NCBI GenBank assembly: GCA_910588245.1
Contig: CAJUQP010000008.1
Span: forward strand, 56,706-88,705
DNA from: an uncultured Muribaculaceae bacterium
Lineage (GTDB): Bacteria; Bacteroidota; Bacteroidia; Bacteroidales; Muribaculaceae
Direction of reading: 5' to 3'
DNA length: 32,000 nucleotides
Positions within the stretch are counted from its first letter, which is position 1. Each line of letters opens with the position of its first letter. Below, piece after piece: positions 12,958-23,858 of this stretch. The translations under genes and the position numbers were made by a program. The notes below the pieces were generated by a model, which worked only from the letters and a program-made list of their open reading frames with translations, was not told the origin of the DNA and made no database searches.

Positions 12958-12997
12958 ATTGATGTCTTAGTTTAAATTGATAAAAAAATATAATCTA

Positions 12998-15900
12998 TTA
13001 TTTGACACTGAGATACCGTTTATTCCCTTCCACCCCGTTTGCCTTTGCCGGACATAAACGGAATGTGAAATCCATCTTTCTCGCCGGAATCAGATATGGC
13101 TCATGCGGGAAGGCACCCCACGATGTATCACCACCTACACCCATCTGCTTCAAGTCTATATTCCATGTCACCATGTCTTTAGGTTTTATATCAGATGTGT
13201 GGCGCTGCGACTTACGGAGTCCGGGCTCATCAAGATCCTCAGTCGGGAATAGATAAGCACTGCTGCTGAACAGAGGTTCACCTATAGCCATAATACCGTT
13301 ACCGTTCTTGTCTGTAAGGCTCATCCAACGCACATCAGTTTTATTGCCATTCTCCTGCGGACGGTCATAGGCGAAATACTGATCTGCGACACTTCCTTTG
13401 AAATGGCCTACAAAAGATGACGTGTTACGGTCTATGTAATTCTCCTGAGGACCTCTGCCAAGCCATTCCATCTCATCATACTGTCTGTTGAGAGTAAGGC
13501 TTACTCCGAAGCGCGGCATGAGAGGCAATGTGTCATTCGCGGGGACGAAAGTGCAGTTTACATAGAGATCTTTTTCCGGAGTAAATAAATAACGAACCGT
13601 GAATTCTGAATTATCAACTGATTCCGGGAGCTGATAACGAGATACAATCTCATATCCGTCGTTATTGAGATTATTTTTCTCAAAGGAAACAAGCTTTGCA
13701 TCACGTCCGGCCTCACGCCAGGCCCTCAGAGTCTTATTCATTCCGTTGCCCATATCATTATCTGTCACAGGGCGCCAGAAATTAGGACGGAGACCTTCTT
13801 TTATCATCTCAGTGCCATTATTTTTAAATGAACACAGACTTCCTGTCTTCTTGTCAAATCCGACGCTTACCTCACCATTGCTAAAGACAACCATTCCGTC
13901 GGTTTCCGACTCAGATACATTACCTTTGGAAACATTCCTTTCAACAGCCTTGTAAAATGGCAATGCAACCTGTTCGGAAGCAAGTAATGTACCGGCCTTT
14001 AGCAAACCATCGTCCACCTTTTTCGCAGCATAAAAATTGATAAAGTATTCTACACCGGGCTCAGGATTAATTTGCGGGAAGGAAGCCTTTACAACTCCTT
14101 TTTCCTGAGGAGCGATCTCTACATTATCAAACTTGCCTTCAGCCAAAATATCGCCATTACCTTCAACTCTCCAGGAGAAATCAAAGTCATCGAGATTTGT
14201 GAAGAAATATTTGTTTTTAAGTTCCACCAATCCCTCATGATAGTCAAGTAATTTAAAGGCTACATTCTGGTACACCTTCTTCACCTCATGGATATGAGGT
14301 TTCAAGGTGCGGTCGGCGGTTACAAGTCCGTTCATACAGAAATTAGCACTGCTGGGAGTTCCCTCAGGCGCAAGATCGCCCCCGTATGCCCAATATGGAG
14401 TGCCGTCAGCTGTTTCGGCATAAAGGCCCTGATCTACCCAATCCCAGATATGACCACCCTGAAGTGATGGGTATTTTTCTATCACATCCCAGTAATCTTG
14501 AAGATTACCCTCACTATTTCCCATGGCATGGGCATATTCGCAAAGAATCAGAGGTTTTTTGGGCATATAAATGGAATGGTGAAGAAGCACGTCAAGTTTC
14601 TTATACATCGGGCAATATATGTCGGTATACGGCAGCTCATTGCCGGCATCCTCAGAATGTACGGGACGGCGAGACTTATCATTAGCATGGATCCAGTCGT
14701 ATGTAGCCTGGAAATTACAGCCGGAACCTGTCTCATTTCCAAGCGACCAGATTATCACACAAGGATGGTTTTTGTCTCTCTCAAACATACGTTCGGTGCG
14801 GTCAATAAACGCTTTCTGCCATTCCGGCTGATTTGCAAGACAGCGATCAGGCTTATATCCCATACCGTGGCTCTCTATATTAGCCTCGTCGACGACATAC
14901 ATGCCATATATATCGCAGAGTTCATACCACCTCGGATCATTAGGATAATGAGAAGTACGCACACTGTTGATGTTGTTCTCTTTCATAAGCTTCAGATCAC
15001 GGATCATCGAGGCCTCATCAACCACATGACCGGTGCGCGGATCATGCTCGTGGCGGTTCACACCTTTGATATATACCGGTTTGCCATTCACAAGAAGCTG
15101 CGCATGTTTGATCTCACTCTCACGAAAACCTATATTGCTGCAGATATACTGAGACTTACCTCCGCTGTTTAAAGAGATCAACAATTTATAAAGATTGGGA
15201 GTTTCTGCGCTCCACAATAAAGGCGACACTATATGCTTGCTAAACTGCACGGTGCTGCCGTTGACTTTCTTACGTTCAGAATAAACTGTCTTGCCGGTTT
15301 TATCCATAAGGGCAACCTCTACGACAGCGCCTTTGATTTTCTTTGTCTGATCTGAAGAGCCAAGTTCAAGATAAAGGTTGAAATCAGCATCCTTATAGTC
15401 GTCATCAAGATCTGTCACGACTTCGAAATCACGCACATAAACCTTAGGCCGTGCATATGCATAGACATCTCTCTGTATACCGGCGAAACGCCAGTAATCC
15501 TGATCCTCCAGATAATATCCATCGCTGAATTTAAACACCTGAACAGCTATCTGATTCTCTCCCGGTTTCACATAATCCGTGATGTCGAACTCACTCGGCG
15601 TCTTTGAATCCTGCGAATAGCCAACCATTTTGCCGTTGACCCAGACATAAAAGGCAGAAGCCACACCTCCGAAATGAAGAATTATCTGCTGCCCTTTCCA
15701 ATTGGCCGGGACTGTGAACGTGCGACGGTATGAACCGACAGGGCTATTCTCCACATCAATCAAAGGAGGATTCACCTTTATGCCATAACCGGCTCCCACA
15801 TAGAAGGGATAACCGTATCCCTCCAGTTCCCAGTTAGACGGGACCTTGATGTCGTTCCATCCGCTCACGTCGTAGTCGGTTTTGTAGAAATCCATAGGGC

Positions 15901-16219
15901 GCTTATCGGAGCGCTCAACGAATTTGAATTTCCAGCTACCATTGAGAGGCATATAGTATTCCGATGCATTCTTATCATTCTTAATGGCTTTCTCCTTTGA
16001 AGAGTAAAGCAAGAACGTAGCTGCAGAAGGCAAACGGTTAATATGCAGCACATCGAAGTTCTCCCAATCATTATCTGAATGAGGATATTTATTTGTCCTT
16101 ACTGCCGGTTTAGCTTTTTTTGCCTCCGCTGTCTTCTCCATAGGAGCCCCGTCATACTGCGCAAAAGCGCCAAAAGACATCAAAAACGCCAACAAGCCAG
16201 CTATATGTAGTTTATTCAT
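12998..16219 (-). CDS. lacZ: GH2 beta-galactosidase, LacZ-type, ~1073 aa, low-GC copy
   Basis: Motifs [49 protein letters not shown] and FWRPVTDND. About 55-60% identical to 8846..11968 across the catalytic core by eye. I prefer ATG 16219 ([20 protein letters not shown], a signal peptide); the ORF-track start at 16252 is TTG. Confidence 0.93.
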
Positions 16220-16260
16220 ATCAAATATTATCTTTATCTGATTAATATTCAATCATCTTT

Positions 16261-23091: not shown

Positions 23092-23099
23092 CAAAAATA
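23092..23099 (-). promoter_or_regulatory. Candidate Bacteroides -7 box (TATTTTTG) upstream of the SusC-like gene
   Basis: The + strand reads caaaaata, which is TAnnTTTG on the minus strand. It lies ~97 nt upstream of ATG 22995. This is a motif match only. Confidence 0.3.
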
Positions 23100-23395
23100 G
23101 GATTTCAGGCCTTGAAACACCTACAATACTTTATAAACATTATTGATTTTAAATAAATTACCTATCTATATATATCTACAAGAATGTATAATCAGAGTTG
23201 CCGCCATTAGCAGTTTTAAATTATTTGAATTCTTATAATTTCATTCGTTTGCATGACACTTTAGCGTGTAATCAGCGTGTAATCGTCATTTGTCATTATC
23301 GGTAGTGTCATTGCCGAAGACGCCTCTCTCGAAGCCGCTCCTAAGCCATTTACATGCACAACACAGAGACACCTTTCAAAGAAGCAAAGATAAAA

Positions 23396-23536
23396 GAAAG
23401 GACGAAGGTATTGAACAAAACGGAAATAACTGACTTCTCCCAGGAATTTCACAGCCTCAAAGGAATCAACTATGTTTAAGCCTCTACTATTCAACAGATC
23501 TATTTGTTCAGAAATAGAAAGTGCCTGTTTGGTATA
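23396..23536 (-). pseudogene. Fragment (~47 aa) resembling the N-terminus of an Abi_2 (AbiD/AbiF-like) abortive-infection protein; no ATG, truncated
   Basis: YTKQALSISEQIDLLNSRGLNIVDSFEAVKFLGEVSYFRFVQYLRPF fits the pattern I recall for Abi_2 N-termini: (L/T)xxEQIxxLxxRGLxIxD...A...L..I(N/S)Y(Y/F)R(L/F)..Y..PF. The enclosing ORF (23261..23620) begins with TTG. After this segment its sequence has no family resemblance in any of the three frames I translated. A TATCTTTG box lies at 23618..23625 on the minus strand. Confidence 0.4.
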
Positions 23537-23858
23537 TAATCTTATTGTACCAATATAAAGCAAAAGACCCGCCCTGGTTCGCTGTTCAAATGGGAAGCGT
23601 GGCGGATTCTGTTGCTGCAAAGATACGAATTATTATTGATTACACAAACTTTTTCGAATGGATAATCTTCAAAATGGTGGCTACATTGCGAATAACCGTA
23701 TCCGTTTCCGTATTTTCAGCCACTCACATCGCAATATAGACGCGAAAATCAGGCATATTAAGAGCTCACGCAATCAGATCGTCCGTGGGTTTCATAACTA
23801 ACAACAGTTCTTCCGTCGAGATACTGTAATAGAGATATGACTGGATTCAATCACAATC

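Follow-up and report, generated by a model that had tools for sequence, protein, structure and literature searches.

The window (the whole stretch of DNA analysed, 32,000 nt from an uncultured Muribaculaceae bacterium) contains a PUL with adjacent susC-like and susD-like genes, followed downstream on the same strand by two GH63/MGH1-like and two LacZ-type GH2 genes, which all encode proteins with signal peptides (Table 1). The SusC and SusD genes, the first GH63 gene and the first GH2 gene form a low-GC block (12958-23858), where SusC and SusD lie on one strand with 21 nt between them. This gene content, proposed in an earlier note on the same DNA, is recovered by Pfam domains, as is the lack of an STN extension in the SusC, in which the Pfam search detected no STN domain. 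The GH2 of the block scores 1068 bits against beta_gal_Bga2A (model cutoff 999), and its GH63 also matches the NCBIfam model of YgjK-type alpha-glucosidases, at a score under the cutoff of that model.

Table 1. Features of the locus, termed imported or resident according to the interpretation argued in the text
Feature	Position	Strand	Basis or description
Resident GH63-like gene, high GC	6844-8805	-	Pfam; last gene of the putative operon
Resident GH2, high GC	8846-11968	-	Pfam
Resident LysO/DUF340 membrane protein	12074-12957	-	PF03956; two overlapping parts
Left junction, AT-rich spacer	12958-12997	-	40 nt between imported GH2 stop and resident LysO start
Imported LacZ-type GH2 beta-galactosidase	12998-16252	-	NCBIfam beta_gal_Bga2A; signal peptide
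Imported GH63/MGH1-like glycosidase	16261-18270	-	Pfam MGH1-like_GH, E 2.4e-71; signal peptide
Imported SusD-type lipoprotein	18364-19899	-	Pfam SusD_RagB, SusD-like_3
Imported SusC-type TonB-dependent transporter	19921-22995	-	TIGR04056, 895 bits; Pfam Plug, CarbopepD_reg_2
TAATTTAG box, candidate -7 promoter element	23036-23043	-	48 nt upstream of SusC ATG
Putative operator, three direct repeats (TTGTAGAT, TTGTAGGT, TTGTAGAT)	23089-23181	-	-186, -131 and -99 from SusC ATG
Distal spacer, AT-rich	23182-23858	-	~680 nt, 39% GC
Resident one-component regulator	23859-25535	-	Pfam TPR_12, GerE; 558 aa
Right junction, outer limit	23868	.	First base of renewed L100 homology, 6 nt past regulator stop codon
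Resident Tricorn-like S41 protease	25532-28798	-	Pfam PD40, Tricorn_C1, PDZ, Peptidase_S41

The genes on both sides of the block are of resident type. LysO consists of two overlapping parts of 93 aa and 214 aa (ORFs 12676-12957 and 12074-12718), which share 86% and 89% identity with those of L100, the closest sampled relative, and its sequence is of resident type already at the first codon (82% nucleotide identity to L100 vs 43% to donor-type loci). Its position is constant across all short-form and long-form loci that reach that far, and it is identified on this basis as a conserved member of the PUL. The resident GH2 is a paralogue of the block GH2 (40% identity) and is 81% identical to that of L100, while the resident GH63 falls within the clade of the recipient's genus and shares 82% identity with that of genus member G093. 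All genes of the putative operon lie on a single strand with 8-105 nt between them; no terminator-like site is predicted in its intergenic gaps, and a terminator-like hairpin (6793-6771) is found 3' of the resident GH63, after the last gene. Upstream, the stop codon of the Tricorn-like protease overlaps the start of the regulator by 4 nt, and this protease is 83% identical to that of L100, 52-66% to those of genus relatives and 53-56% to those of Bacteroidaceae genomes with the donor-type locus.

Directly upstream of SusC is the regulator gene, whose product contains, in this order, a signal peptide or first helix (aa 14-34), a TPR sensor, a membrane helix (~350-374), a linker and a GerE/LuxR-type helix-turn-helix (500-553), in agreement with the two hydrophobic segments of its hydropathy profile. 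Its GerE match scores 22.9 bits against a cutoff of 23.5, and the C-terminus resembles UhpA/UvrY (NCBIfam). The closest named homologues are Muribaculaceae LuxR-family regulators, identity is 81% to L100, 77% to G093 and 51-54% to B. heparinolyticus-type loci, and no donor-like tract is seen in the gene, which is judged to be resident. An orthologue adjoins SusC in every related locus examined that reaches that far, both in the recipient genus and in the donor lineage. The earlier note had described an orphan PUL without a regulator; this is not supported, given the TPR/membrane-helix/GerE protein with its conserved position and, as further evidence, the conserved triple repeat between it and SusC.

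These repeats, a putative operator with the consensus TTGTAG(A/G)T, form a triplet that is unique in the 3.5-Mb genome (both strands). Three invariant TTGTA cores align in 10 loci, of long and short form and from both families, with the regulator adjoining in all ten, and the triplet is also present between a 40%-identical regulator and a SusC gene in another family. No triplet is present upstream of those versions of the cassette that are under ECF control, with an ECF sigma factor, FecR as the anti-sigma factor and a SusC that bears an STN domain; the occurrence of the cassette under ECF sigma/anti-sigma control as well would show at least one switch of control system. The box nearer to the start codon reads TAATTTAG in 6 of the 10 aligned loci and TAACTTAG or TTCTTTGC in the others, and resembles TAnnTTTG, which we take to be the Bacteroidales -7 consensus. 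Site patterns across the 190-nt operator/promoter region are 21 resident-like and 15 donor-like positions (p = 0.4), a split that favours neither origin. The regulator-SusC spacer is 863 nt here vs 214-316 nt in most related loci, and despite this greater length the distance from the triplet to the SusC ATG is kept. The distal part of the spacer has no similarity to the spacers of relatives or donor-type loci and holds a decayed Abi_2-type gene fragment (about 23396-23536), which has no Pfam match itself; its similarity (40% identity over 47 aa, E 2e-5) is to an ORF of contig C71 that matches Pfam Abi_2 (E 4e-25). The same spacer carries a MITE-like insertion in another strain.

Proteins of the block are 75-80% identical to those of loci in Bacteroides heparinolyticus DSM 23917 and a Bacteroidaceae MAG (SusC, 78-80%; SusD, 77-79%; GH63, 76%; GH2, 75-77%), where flank proteins reach 45-67%. 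In the trees, the block GH2 and GH63 are sister to the copies of the two donor-type genomes (SH-aLRT 99 and 100, respectively), inside a Bacteroidaceae clade, and their resident counterparts group with the recipient's genus, as sister to G093 (GH2: SH-aLRT 100); the phylogeny of the block genes is accordingly read as incongruent with that of the flanking genes. No match to SusD of the block type was obtained in 120 genus genomes or in 400 family genomes, which sample 35 genera, and a search of the 220 other species in the genus gave no GH63 of this type. In B. heparinolyticus-type loci the cassette sits between an orthologous regulator (upstream) and LysO (downstream), which also flank it in two Mediterranea-type loci. 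Phylogeny, synteny and absence in relatives agree in identifying the block as foreign DNA of Bacteroidaceae type, with nearest relatives that are placed in the B. heparinolyticus branch of this family, and the donor-type and recipient lineages appear to be from different families. The same evidence supports the origin in a lower-GC Bacteroidales lineage suggested earlier. The best match of SusD among 5.8 billion proteins searched is 80% identical; no donor above ~80% amino acid identity is present in the searched databases, and the transfer would therefore be old or the donor lineage unsampled.

Six genomes of the genus and L100 contain the order regulator-SusC'-SusD'-LysO-GH2-GH63 at the same locus, L100 with flank proteins of 79-91% identity and a RuvC-DeoC-EndoI-Tricorn flank common to both. 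The relatives' SusC' and SusD' share 34-36% and 32-33% identity, respectively, with the SusC and SusD of the window, and an orthologue of either was not found elsewhere in this genome. Homology to L100 stops at 12959 (12957 for G093) and restarts at 23868, from where blastn aligns the window to L100 as far as 28805 at 76.6%; combined with the layout of the relatives, this indicates that 4.7 kb with SusC'-SusD' were replaced by the 10.9-kb block. The block ends given by the earlier note are thereby right to ~10 nt, but its statement that clean ends are lacking does not survive comparison with the relatives, by which both ends are placed at clean gene boundaries. What the comparison shows is an in-place exchange with junctions at gene boundaries and the resident regulator kept. 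No terminator-like hairpin is predicted in the 40-nt spacer before LysO, in line with the earlier note, which had suggested that transcripts of the imported PUL could run on into resident genes. In the ancestral form, LysO-GH2-GH63 already follow SusD in the same orientation, and transcription into these genes is therefore most likely the native layout of the operon and not an accident.

The GC content of the block is 44.6%, compared with 57.6% in the left flank (4500-12957) and 54.8% in the right flank (23859-32000), which bears out the large drop across the four genes reported before; in a 1-kb profile, the fall lies at 12500-13500 and the recovery at 23500-25500. The left flank is on the high side of the window GC of the genome (3.50 Mb, 51.3% GC, a draft in 74 contigs), which inflates the contrast in part. 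Among 10-kb windows of the genome (sd 3.5 points) the block is at the 4.4th percentile, GC3 of its genes (0.47-0.51) at the 7th-13th percentile of 1774 long ORFs, where flank genes (0.66-0.70) are at the 61st-73rd, and by tetranucleotide distance to the mean of the genome it ranks in the top 7% of windows. Compared with the whole genome the block is unusual in composition, but the deviation is moderate and not extreme. L100 and the genus relatives have no GC dip across SusC'/SusD', and the Mediterranea copies of the cassette have 55-58% GC; elsewhere, the composition of the locus follows the host.

The explanation that we favour, and consider likely as a whole, is that a cassette from a Bacteroidaceae-type donor was swapped into a resident PUL scaffold by in-place exchange, with the regulator retained. 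The ancestral PUL would have contained the regulator, the operator/promoter and SusC'-SusD'-LysO (two parts)-GH2-GH63, and the exchange would have taken place in the lineage of this species after its split from the closest sampled relative, with incoming DNA of 10.9 kb made up of spacer DNA and SusC-SusD-GH63-GH2. The DNA may have entered by conjugation, followed by recombination of the donor's copy of the PUL scaffold with that of the recipient, with both crossovers presumably in non-coding DNA at gene boundaries, and the low GC would be a donor signature not yet ameliorated. In the resulting operon, the regulator is predicted to sense a periplasmic ligand via its TPR domain, to bind the three repeats and to activate a single long transcript that starts with SusC, spans the imported enzyme genes and runs into the resident LysO-GH2-GH63. 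The known donor-type flanks have ~65-70% nucleotide identity to those of the recipient, and a sliding-window comparison detected no donor-like tracts in the regulator and LysO genes up to the junctions. On this evidence, illegitimate or microhomology-mediated joining may account for the ends just as well as classical homologous recombination within the flanking genes, and a closer, unsampled donor with recombination-competent flanks may exist.

A vertically inherited cassette of intrinsically low GC, with SusC/SusD-type genes that are low-GC in a heterogeneous genome, would agree with the 34 regions of ≤47% GC in this genome and with the SusC/SusD of B. heparinolyticus and Mediterranea, which are 4-9 GC points under the LysO and GH2 genes of the same locus (7-9 points under LysO and the second GH2 in B. 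heparinolyticus). The GC contrast is intrinsic in part, as SusC/SusD of B. heparinolyticus are also low. Yet the relatives hold non-orthologous SusC'/SusD' at this site without a GC dip, the cassette type is missing from the genus and family genomes searched, the block genes fall inside the Bacteroidaceae with identity above that of the flank genes at the same locus and of the Tricorn protease, and the imported GH63 and GH2 have 45% GC here vs 52% in B. heparinolyticus. Vertical inheritance is already contradicted by this synteny and phylogeny and is considered very improbable. A chimera of Muribaculaceae and Bacteroidaceae genomes created in assembly or binning, for which the draft state of the genome (74 contigs) speaks, is hardly credible, since three independent metagenome contigs (144-285 kb, from different samples) have the same gene order across both junctions at 99.6-99.9% identity, and the index of the searched collection lists the exact SusD protein for 1424 blocks.

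The block may alternatively have come beside the regulator on a mobile element (ICE, transposon or phage), followed by loss of the mobility genes and deletion of SusC'-SusD', with no part played by the shared scaffold. The AT-rich DNA with the decayed Abi_2-type fragment at the right end, the MITE-like insertion of the other strain and the lack of a donor tract in the flanking genes are in its favour. However, no ORF for integrase, transposase or conjugation genes is present in 12958-23858, no tRNA in the window, and repeats at the block ends are at chance level only (14-21 nt), all as the earlier note had found for integrase, transposase, tRNA and direct repeats. Donor-type loci moreover have the identical neighbours, so that random insertion and precise deletion must have recreated the donor arrangement by chance, and this route is judged unlikely. 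It is also rather improbable that the imported cassette is a functional orphan, silent or constitutive, and that the regulator serves the co-transcribed Tricorn protease. The overlap of the two genes and the long spacer to SusC would fit this, but the protease does not adjoin the regulator in other genus members or in Bacteroides, whereas regulator-SusC adjacency and the triplet are conserved in all ten loci and the triplet-ATG distance is unchanged.

Replacement of PULs between conserved "node" genes has been described in Bacteroides ovatus/xylanisolvens, where chromosomal conjugation followed by recombination within the flanking genes is proposed and such exchange is expected mainly among close relatives (Pudlo et al. 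2022, PMC8845570). The in-place exchange favoured here is similar, in that genes shared by donor-type and recipient loci directly enclose the variable segment, which is devoid of mobility functions. Unlike at those nodes, the exchange would have occurred inside one operon, with the transporter pair swapped, two enzymes added and the regulator, operator-type repeats and downstream genes kept; the families appear to differ, and against the known donor-type flanks (~65-70% nucleotide identity) neither recombination-level identity nor a donor-like tract is visible. The ICE-borne porphyran and agarose PULs of gut Bacteroides, cited in PMC8845570 (refs 31, 40, 41 therein), are likewise PULs of foreign composition acquired by a gut Bacteroidales genome, but here there are no ICE genes, tRNA target or att repeats, and the integration site is a homologous PUL.

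The regulator resembles SusR, by the published description, in its gene position beside susC and in its architecture, that of a membrane protein whose sensor is periplasmic and whose C-terminal helix-turn-helix is cytoplasmic. The DNA-binding domain of SusR is described as unlike any other family, and the operators predicted for SusR-type regulators consist of two directly repeated sites at a long spacing of 67 or 77 nt (Ravcheev et al. 2013, PMC3878776). The putative operator here is also built of direct repeats, and TGTAGAT read on the opposite strand gives ATCTACA, the site predicted for SusR4, but there are three sites, spaced by 55 and 32 nt, and the regulator carries a GerE/LuxR-type domain. 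With BguR (Bartosik et al., bioRxiv 10.64898/2026.01.10.698779), which regulates PULs in marine Bacteroidota as a membrane-spanning one-component protein, it shares the signal peptide, periplasmic sensor, single membrane helix, helical linker and GerE helix-turn-helix, the gene position directly upstream of SusC/D and a conserved upstream motif; as in BguR, which works without a phosphorelay, kinase and receiver domains are absent, Pfam and NCBIfam giving TPR and GerE-type regions only. It differs in size (558 aa vs 940 aa) and in its sensor, a TPR array of ~300 aa in place of two beta-propellers and a Y_Y_Y domain, neither of which was found by Pfam, where the sensor region matches TPR families only; the PUL here encodes GH63 and GH2, that of BguR beta-glucanases. 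Over the membrane helix, linker and GerE region the regulator is 25-30% identical to BguR-sized proteins (~980-1000 aa) of genome G000 and B. heparinolyticus, and a search of B. heparinolyticus with it returned only the orthologue and a BguR-like protein, with no further paralogue at E ≤ 0.001.

We propose, tentatively and with somewhat less than even confidence, that the TPR/membrane-helix/GerE protein belongs to an uncharacterised class, the third after SusR and BguR, of one-component PUL regulators that span the membrane, with a triple TTGTAGAT operator and a socket for exchangeable cassettes. If true, the regulator and operator upstream and LysO-GH2-GH63 downstream would be a conserved socket for SusC/SusD/enzyme cassettes, which could be exchanged even between families of Bacteroidales without rewiring of regulation.

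The block at window 12958-23858 (SusC, SusD, GH63-like and GH2 genes) is a cross-family, in-place cassette replacement within a conserved PUL. A nucleotide-level search of 40 relatives with the whole locus matched only the protease and the conserved core of GH2, at ~70%, and no PUL was found in the neighbourhood of the Tricorn protease in seven relatives; protein searches were adopted because the genus is too divergent for DNA-level synteny, and the informative relatives were obtained by searches with the flank genes encoding GH63 and the regulator. Six genomes of the same genus (G093, G060, G062, G119, G088 and G132) carry, as far as their contigs reach, the order regulator-SusC'-SusD'-LysOa-LysOb-GH2-GH63, where SusC' and SusD' are the original transporter pair, while the closest relative found, metagenome contig L100 (JGI 3300010163), encodes flank proteins 79-91% identical to those of the window and is collinear with it over the right flank RuvC-DeoC-endonuclease I-Tricorn-regulator. 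The window SusC and SusD share 34-36% and 32-33% identity with SusC' and SusD' of these seven relatives, respectively, whose loci lack the second GH63/GH2 pair and are uniform in GC, and no SusC'/SusD' orthologue was found elsewhere in G000, the genome containing the window. Nucleotide homology between the window and L100 stops at 12959 and restarts at 23868 (limits against G093: 12957 and 23905). The 10.9-kb block therefore occupies the very site of a 4.7-kb SusC'-SusD' segment of the ancestor, which it replaced. The earlier note had drawn the block correctly to within 10 nt of the limits against L100, and its statement that the block has no clean ends gives way to these breaks. The mosaic is not an assembly artefact, as it is identical across both junctions in three independent contigs of 144-285 kb from different samples (99.6-99.9% identity), these being the contigs listed for the exact SusD protein, which is indexed in 1424 blocks of the collection.

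In a protein scan of species genomes, the best SusD matches came from a Bacteroidaceae MAG (79%) and Bacteroides heparinolyticus DSM 23917 (77%), followed at 56-66% by Mediterranea, Bacteroides sp. and Parabacteroides. The long form of the locus (regulator/SusC/SusD/GH63/GH2/LysO/second GH2), ordered as in the window, is present in the MAG, B. heparinolyticus and two of the three Mediterranea-type loci, and the two closest loci share 75-80% identity with the window in the island proteins versus 45-67% in the flank proteins and 53-56% in the Tricorn protease. The trees place the B. heparinolyticus pair as sister of the imported GH2 and GH63, in a clade that takes in Mediterranea but not Parabacteroides (SH-aLRT 99-100); for the resident GH2 and GH63, the sister is G093, within the genus clade. 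Island-type proteins were found neither in 220 other species genomes of the genus nor across 35 genera of the family (400 genomes). The Bacteroidaceae placement, the identity gap to the flanks and this absence bear out the foreign origin that the earlier note had suggested, and the checks it had named, best-hit taxonomy and synteny with relatives, returned a Bacteroidaceae-type island and a locus without the block in relatives. Among 5.8 billion proteins, SusD finds no match above 80% identity, and therefore the donor is unsampled or the event is not recent.

On composition alone, the block is an import candidate and not a proven import. Direct counts and the GC profile agree with the claimed drop, at 44.6% GC for 12958-23858 versus 57.6% in the left flank (4500-12957) and 54.8% in the right flank (23859-32000). 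G000 (3.50 Mb in 74 contigs, 51.3% GC), where the window lies at C8:56706-88705, is patchy, with a standard deviation of 3.5 GC points among 10-kb windows and 34 regions at or below 47% GC. Composition only nominates the block, because within this genome the island ranks at the 4.4th percentile by GC among 10-kb windows, its genes at the 7th-13th percentile of 1774 long ORFs by GC3 (0.47-0.51; flank genes 0.66-0.70, 61st-73rd percentile), and its tetranucleotide distance to the genome mean in the top 7% of windows. The size of the GC step is owed in part to the GC-rich left flank; the comparison with the whole genome thus upholds a deviation, a moderate one. The Mediterranea copies of the cassette have 55-58% GC, so low GC is not inherent to the cassette genes. 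GC3 of orthologues at this one locus ranges from ~41-51% (G088) up to 86-89% (G093 and G132), a spread unusually wide for what the genome collection treats as a single genus. If many of the 34 low-GC regions are PUL imports, a sizeable share of the accessory genome may derive from lower-GC Bacteroidales.

Features of the PUL and of related loci (window coordinates unless a locus is named)
Feature	Coordinates	Strand	Remarks
LysO genes, resident	12676-12957 and 12074-12718	-	both match PF03956
LacZ-type GH2, imported	12998-16252	-	
GH63/MGH1-like glycosidase, imported	16261-18270	-	
SusD-type lipoprotein	18364-19899	-	
SusC-type transporter	19921-22995	-	CarbopepD_reg and Plug domains, without STN
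Three direct repeats TTGTAGAT, TTGTAGGT, TTGTAGAT	23181-23089	-	start at -186, -131 and -99 from SusC ATG
Regulator	23859-25535		558 aa; hydrophobic segment (aa 14-34), TPR repeats, membrane helix (aa ~350-374), linker, C-terminal GerE/LuxR-type helix-turn-helix
Cassette under ECF/FecR, with STN-bearing SusC	L025:4873-9982, L026:4879-9981, L021:4613-9977		56-69% identical; L026 matched SusC and SusD only

The domain matches agree with the earlier calls of LysO genes and of a SusC without STN, and the reported absence of tRNA and flanking repeats stands: no tRNA was found across the window, and comparison of the block ends for repeats gave nothing meaningful. The two-part LysO/DUF340 protein also occurs in loci L018-L020, L022, L089-L094, L100 and L101-L103 and is a fixed PUL component in both families, always placed after the transporter/enzyme genes and before GH2-GH63. 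What an amino-acid exporter would do in a PUL is not obvious, and this protein may instead be an inner-membrane carrier for the PUL product. At the left of the window, an OmpA_like (PF16961) barrel gene is present in two copies (204-1051 and 2957-3804; 99.5% identical over 848 nt), separated by a lower-GC stretch with a 641-aa ORF without family match.

All genes of the stretch that runs from SusC (22995) to the resident GH63 (6844) lie on one strand, with gaps of 21, 93, 8 and 40 nt, an overlap, and gaps of 105 and 40 nt, in none of which a terminator-like hairpin was predicted; such hairpins follow the last gene (6793-6771) and, weakly, the regulator (23818-23802). The sigma-70 promoter and terminator scans, which gave fewer terminator-like matches than shuffled sequence and do not model Bacteroidales promoters, were used for gap hairpins only. 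Read-through into resident genes, raised in the earlier note, is consistent with the lack of a predicted terminator before LysO, while a reading of it as an accident is not supported, as the layout is ancestral: because LysO-GH2-GH63 trail SusD' in the same way in the ancestral form, transcription from the imported genes into LysO would be the expected design rather than a side effect.

Donor-type loci (B. heparinolyticus and the MAG) and the recipient have a common scaffold, which makes recombination between homologous PULs the natural route; node-flanked PUL replacement by recombination has been proposed by Pudlo et al. (PMC8845570). However, the B. heparinolyticus-type flanks share only ~65-70% nucleotide identity with the recipient, and no donor-like tract was found in either the regulator or LysO, two findings at odds with simple homologous recombination from a donor like B. 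heparinolyticus. The candidate mechanisms are homologous recombination with a closer but unsampled donor, joining at short homologies, and a mobile element that has since decayed. Each crossover falls in non-coding DNA, on the left within the 40 nt of 12958-12997 and on the right somewhere in 22996-23867. Of the right spacer, the distal 680 nt matched nothing in donor-type spacers (blastn-short, tblastx), relatives or the rest of G000 except for a decayed Abi_2-type fragment (23396-23536, - strand), which hints that extra DNA may have entered along with the cassette. This fragment resembles the N-terminus of an abortive-infection gene and is 40% identical over 47 aa to an ORF at G000 contig C71:119-718, which matches PF07751 at E 4e-25; a Pfam search of the fragment itself gave no match.

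The earlier note had described an orphan PUL with no regulator, a reading that is not supported, because an orthologue of the TPR-GerE regulator encoded 1 nt outside its block stands directly upstream of SusC or SusC' in all loci reaching that far. Its GerE domain scores 22.9 bits in Pfam, slightly below the 23.5 cutoff, while its C-terminus is UhpA/UvrY-like (NCBIfam) and many orthologues have a precomputed PF00196 match. The regulator is resident-type over its full length, with its last 40 aligned residues 98% identical to L100 versus 65% to donor-type loci, and its nearest named homologues are from Muribaculaceae; the locus of its Bacteroides orthologue, found on >1000 contigs, is of the short form (regulator/SusC'/SusD'/LysO/GH2/GH63). 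BguR, for which its authors consider only SusR comparable, is a one-component PUL regulator of the membrane whose output domain is GerE (Bartosik et al., bioRxiv 10.64898/2026.01.10.698779). The window regulator shares 25-30% identity with BguR-sized proteins (~980-1000 aa) of G000 and B. heparinolyticus over the membrane helix, linker and GerE, whereas the sensor is formed by beta-propellers in BguR and by a TPR array here. A second PUL of G000 (G000:C7:91076-96841) encodes a BguR-sized protein of ~997 aa just upstream of a SusC gene, the C-terminal region of which resembles the membrane-helix-to-GerE part of the regulator.

The repeat triplet is located at ~-190, -135 and -102 in all long-form loci and at similar distances in short-form L100, G060 and the Bacteroides locus L103, though SusC and SusC' are only ~35% identical. 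Its three TTGTA cores are invariant in a ten-locus alignment, TTGTATA is found at sites 1 and 3 in the very GC-rich G093 and G132, and a scan of both strands of the 3.5-Mb G000 found a single triplet. Five loci, from Parabacteroides and three other genomes, lack the triplet upstream of the cassette, and in the three of them that were checked the cassette is preceded by an ECF sigma factor together with a FecR anti-sigma factor and SusC carries STN; the regulatory system of the cassette has therefore been switched at least once, with STN gained or lost. A locus from a distant family has a 40%-identical regulator and a triplet between the regulator and SusC genes. In a loose order-wide scan for TTGTAG triplets, most matches were unrelated tandem repeats and their rate was close to that of the reversed-pattern control; only two further matches lay upstream of SusC, one of them being this locus with the 40%-identical regulator. 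The triplet of that locus is weak extra support and not a statistic. The repeats thus appear to travel with the regulator and not with the transporter type, and since their presence follows the former, the triplet is a putative operator of the regulator. Membrane-bound SusR-like regulators have predicted direct-repeat operators with long spacers (Ravcheev et al., PMC3878776), and the predicted SusR4 site ATCTACA (PMC3878776) is the reverse complement of TGTAGAT in the window repeat. The PUL would be governed by a membrane one-component regulator via a triple-repeat operator.

Two boxes closer to SusC, TAATTTAG at -48 and AACCTT at -21, show full or almost full conservation. The latter, (A/T)AACC(T/A)T ~20 nt upstream of the ATG (23008-23016, - strand), is kept in all ten loci, and in the SusR, SusR2 and SusR3 alignments (PMC3878776, supplement 2) it precedes susC genes in the form TTATTAACCTT. 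The box may be a 5'-UTR element common to susC genes in general. The last 115 nt of the promoter/operator region are 70% identical to L100 versus 52-53% to donor-type loci, with resident-like versus donor-like site patterns of 12 versus 5 there (p = 0.14) and 21 versus 15 overall, neither significant. In L099, a locus from another strain of the same species and another sample, a 227-nt insertion (L099:6669-6895) ~10 nt upstream of the SusC ATG, equivalent to about window 23000-23009, comes between the putative promoter and the start codon. With perfect terminal inverted repeats of 13 bp (TAGGGTGTTCAGT / ACTGAACACCCTA) and AAAAATTAA in duplicate, the insertion is MITE-like; no further copy was found in G000.

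Lateral transfer of PULs is well known, and a foreign origin by itself is ordinary. Less ordinary is the exchange unit, a sub-operon cassette of a transporter pair and two enzymes replaced with gene-boundary precision, while the regulator, the operator-type repeats and the downstream genes were kept resident; so is a cassette whose nearest relatives belong to another family, past the expected range of flank-mediated homologous recombination. The comparison also exposes a conserved uncharacterised pair, the TPR-GerE membrane regulator and the triple TTGTAGAT repeat, which is common in Bacteroides (>1000 contigs for one orthologue) and is the most promising lead. These observations yield testable predictions on how uncharacterised PULs are switched on, and show a way in which gut Bacteroidales could acquire transporters or sets of enzymes with no need for new regulation to evolve.
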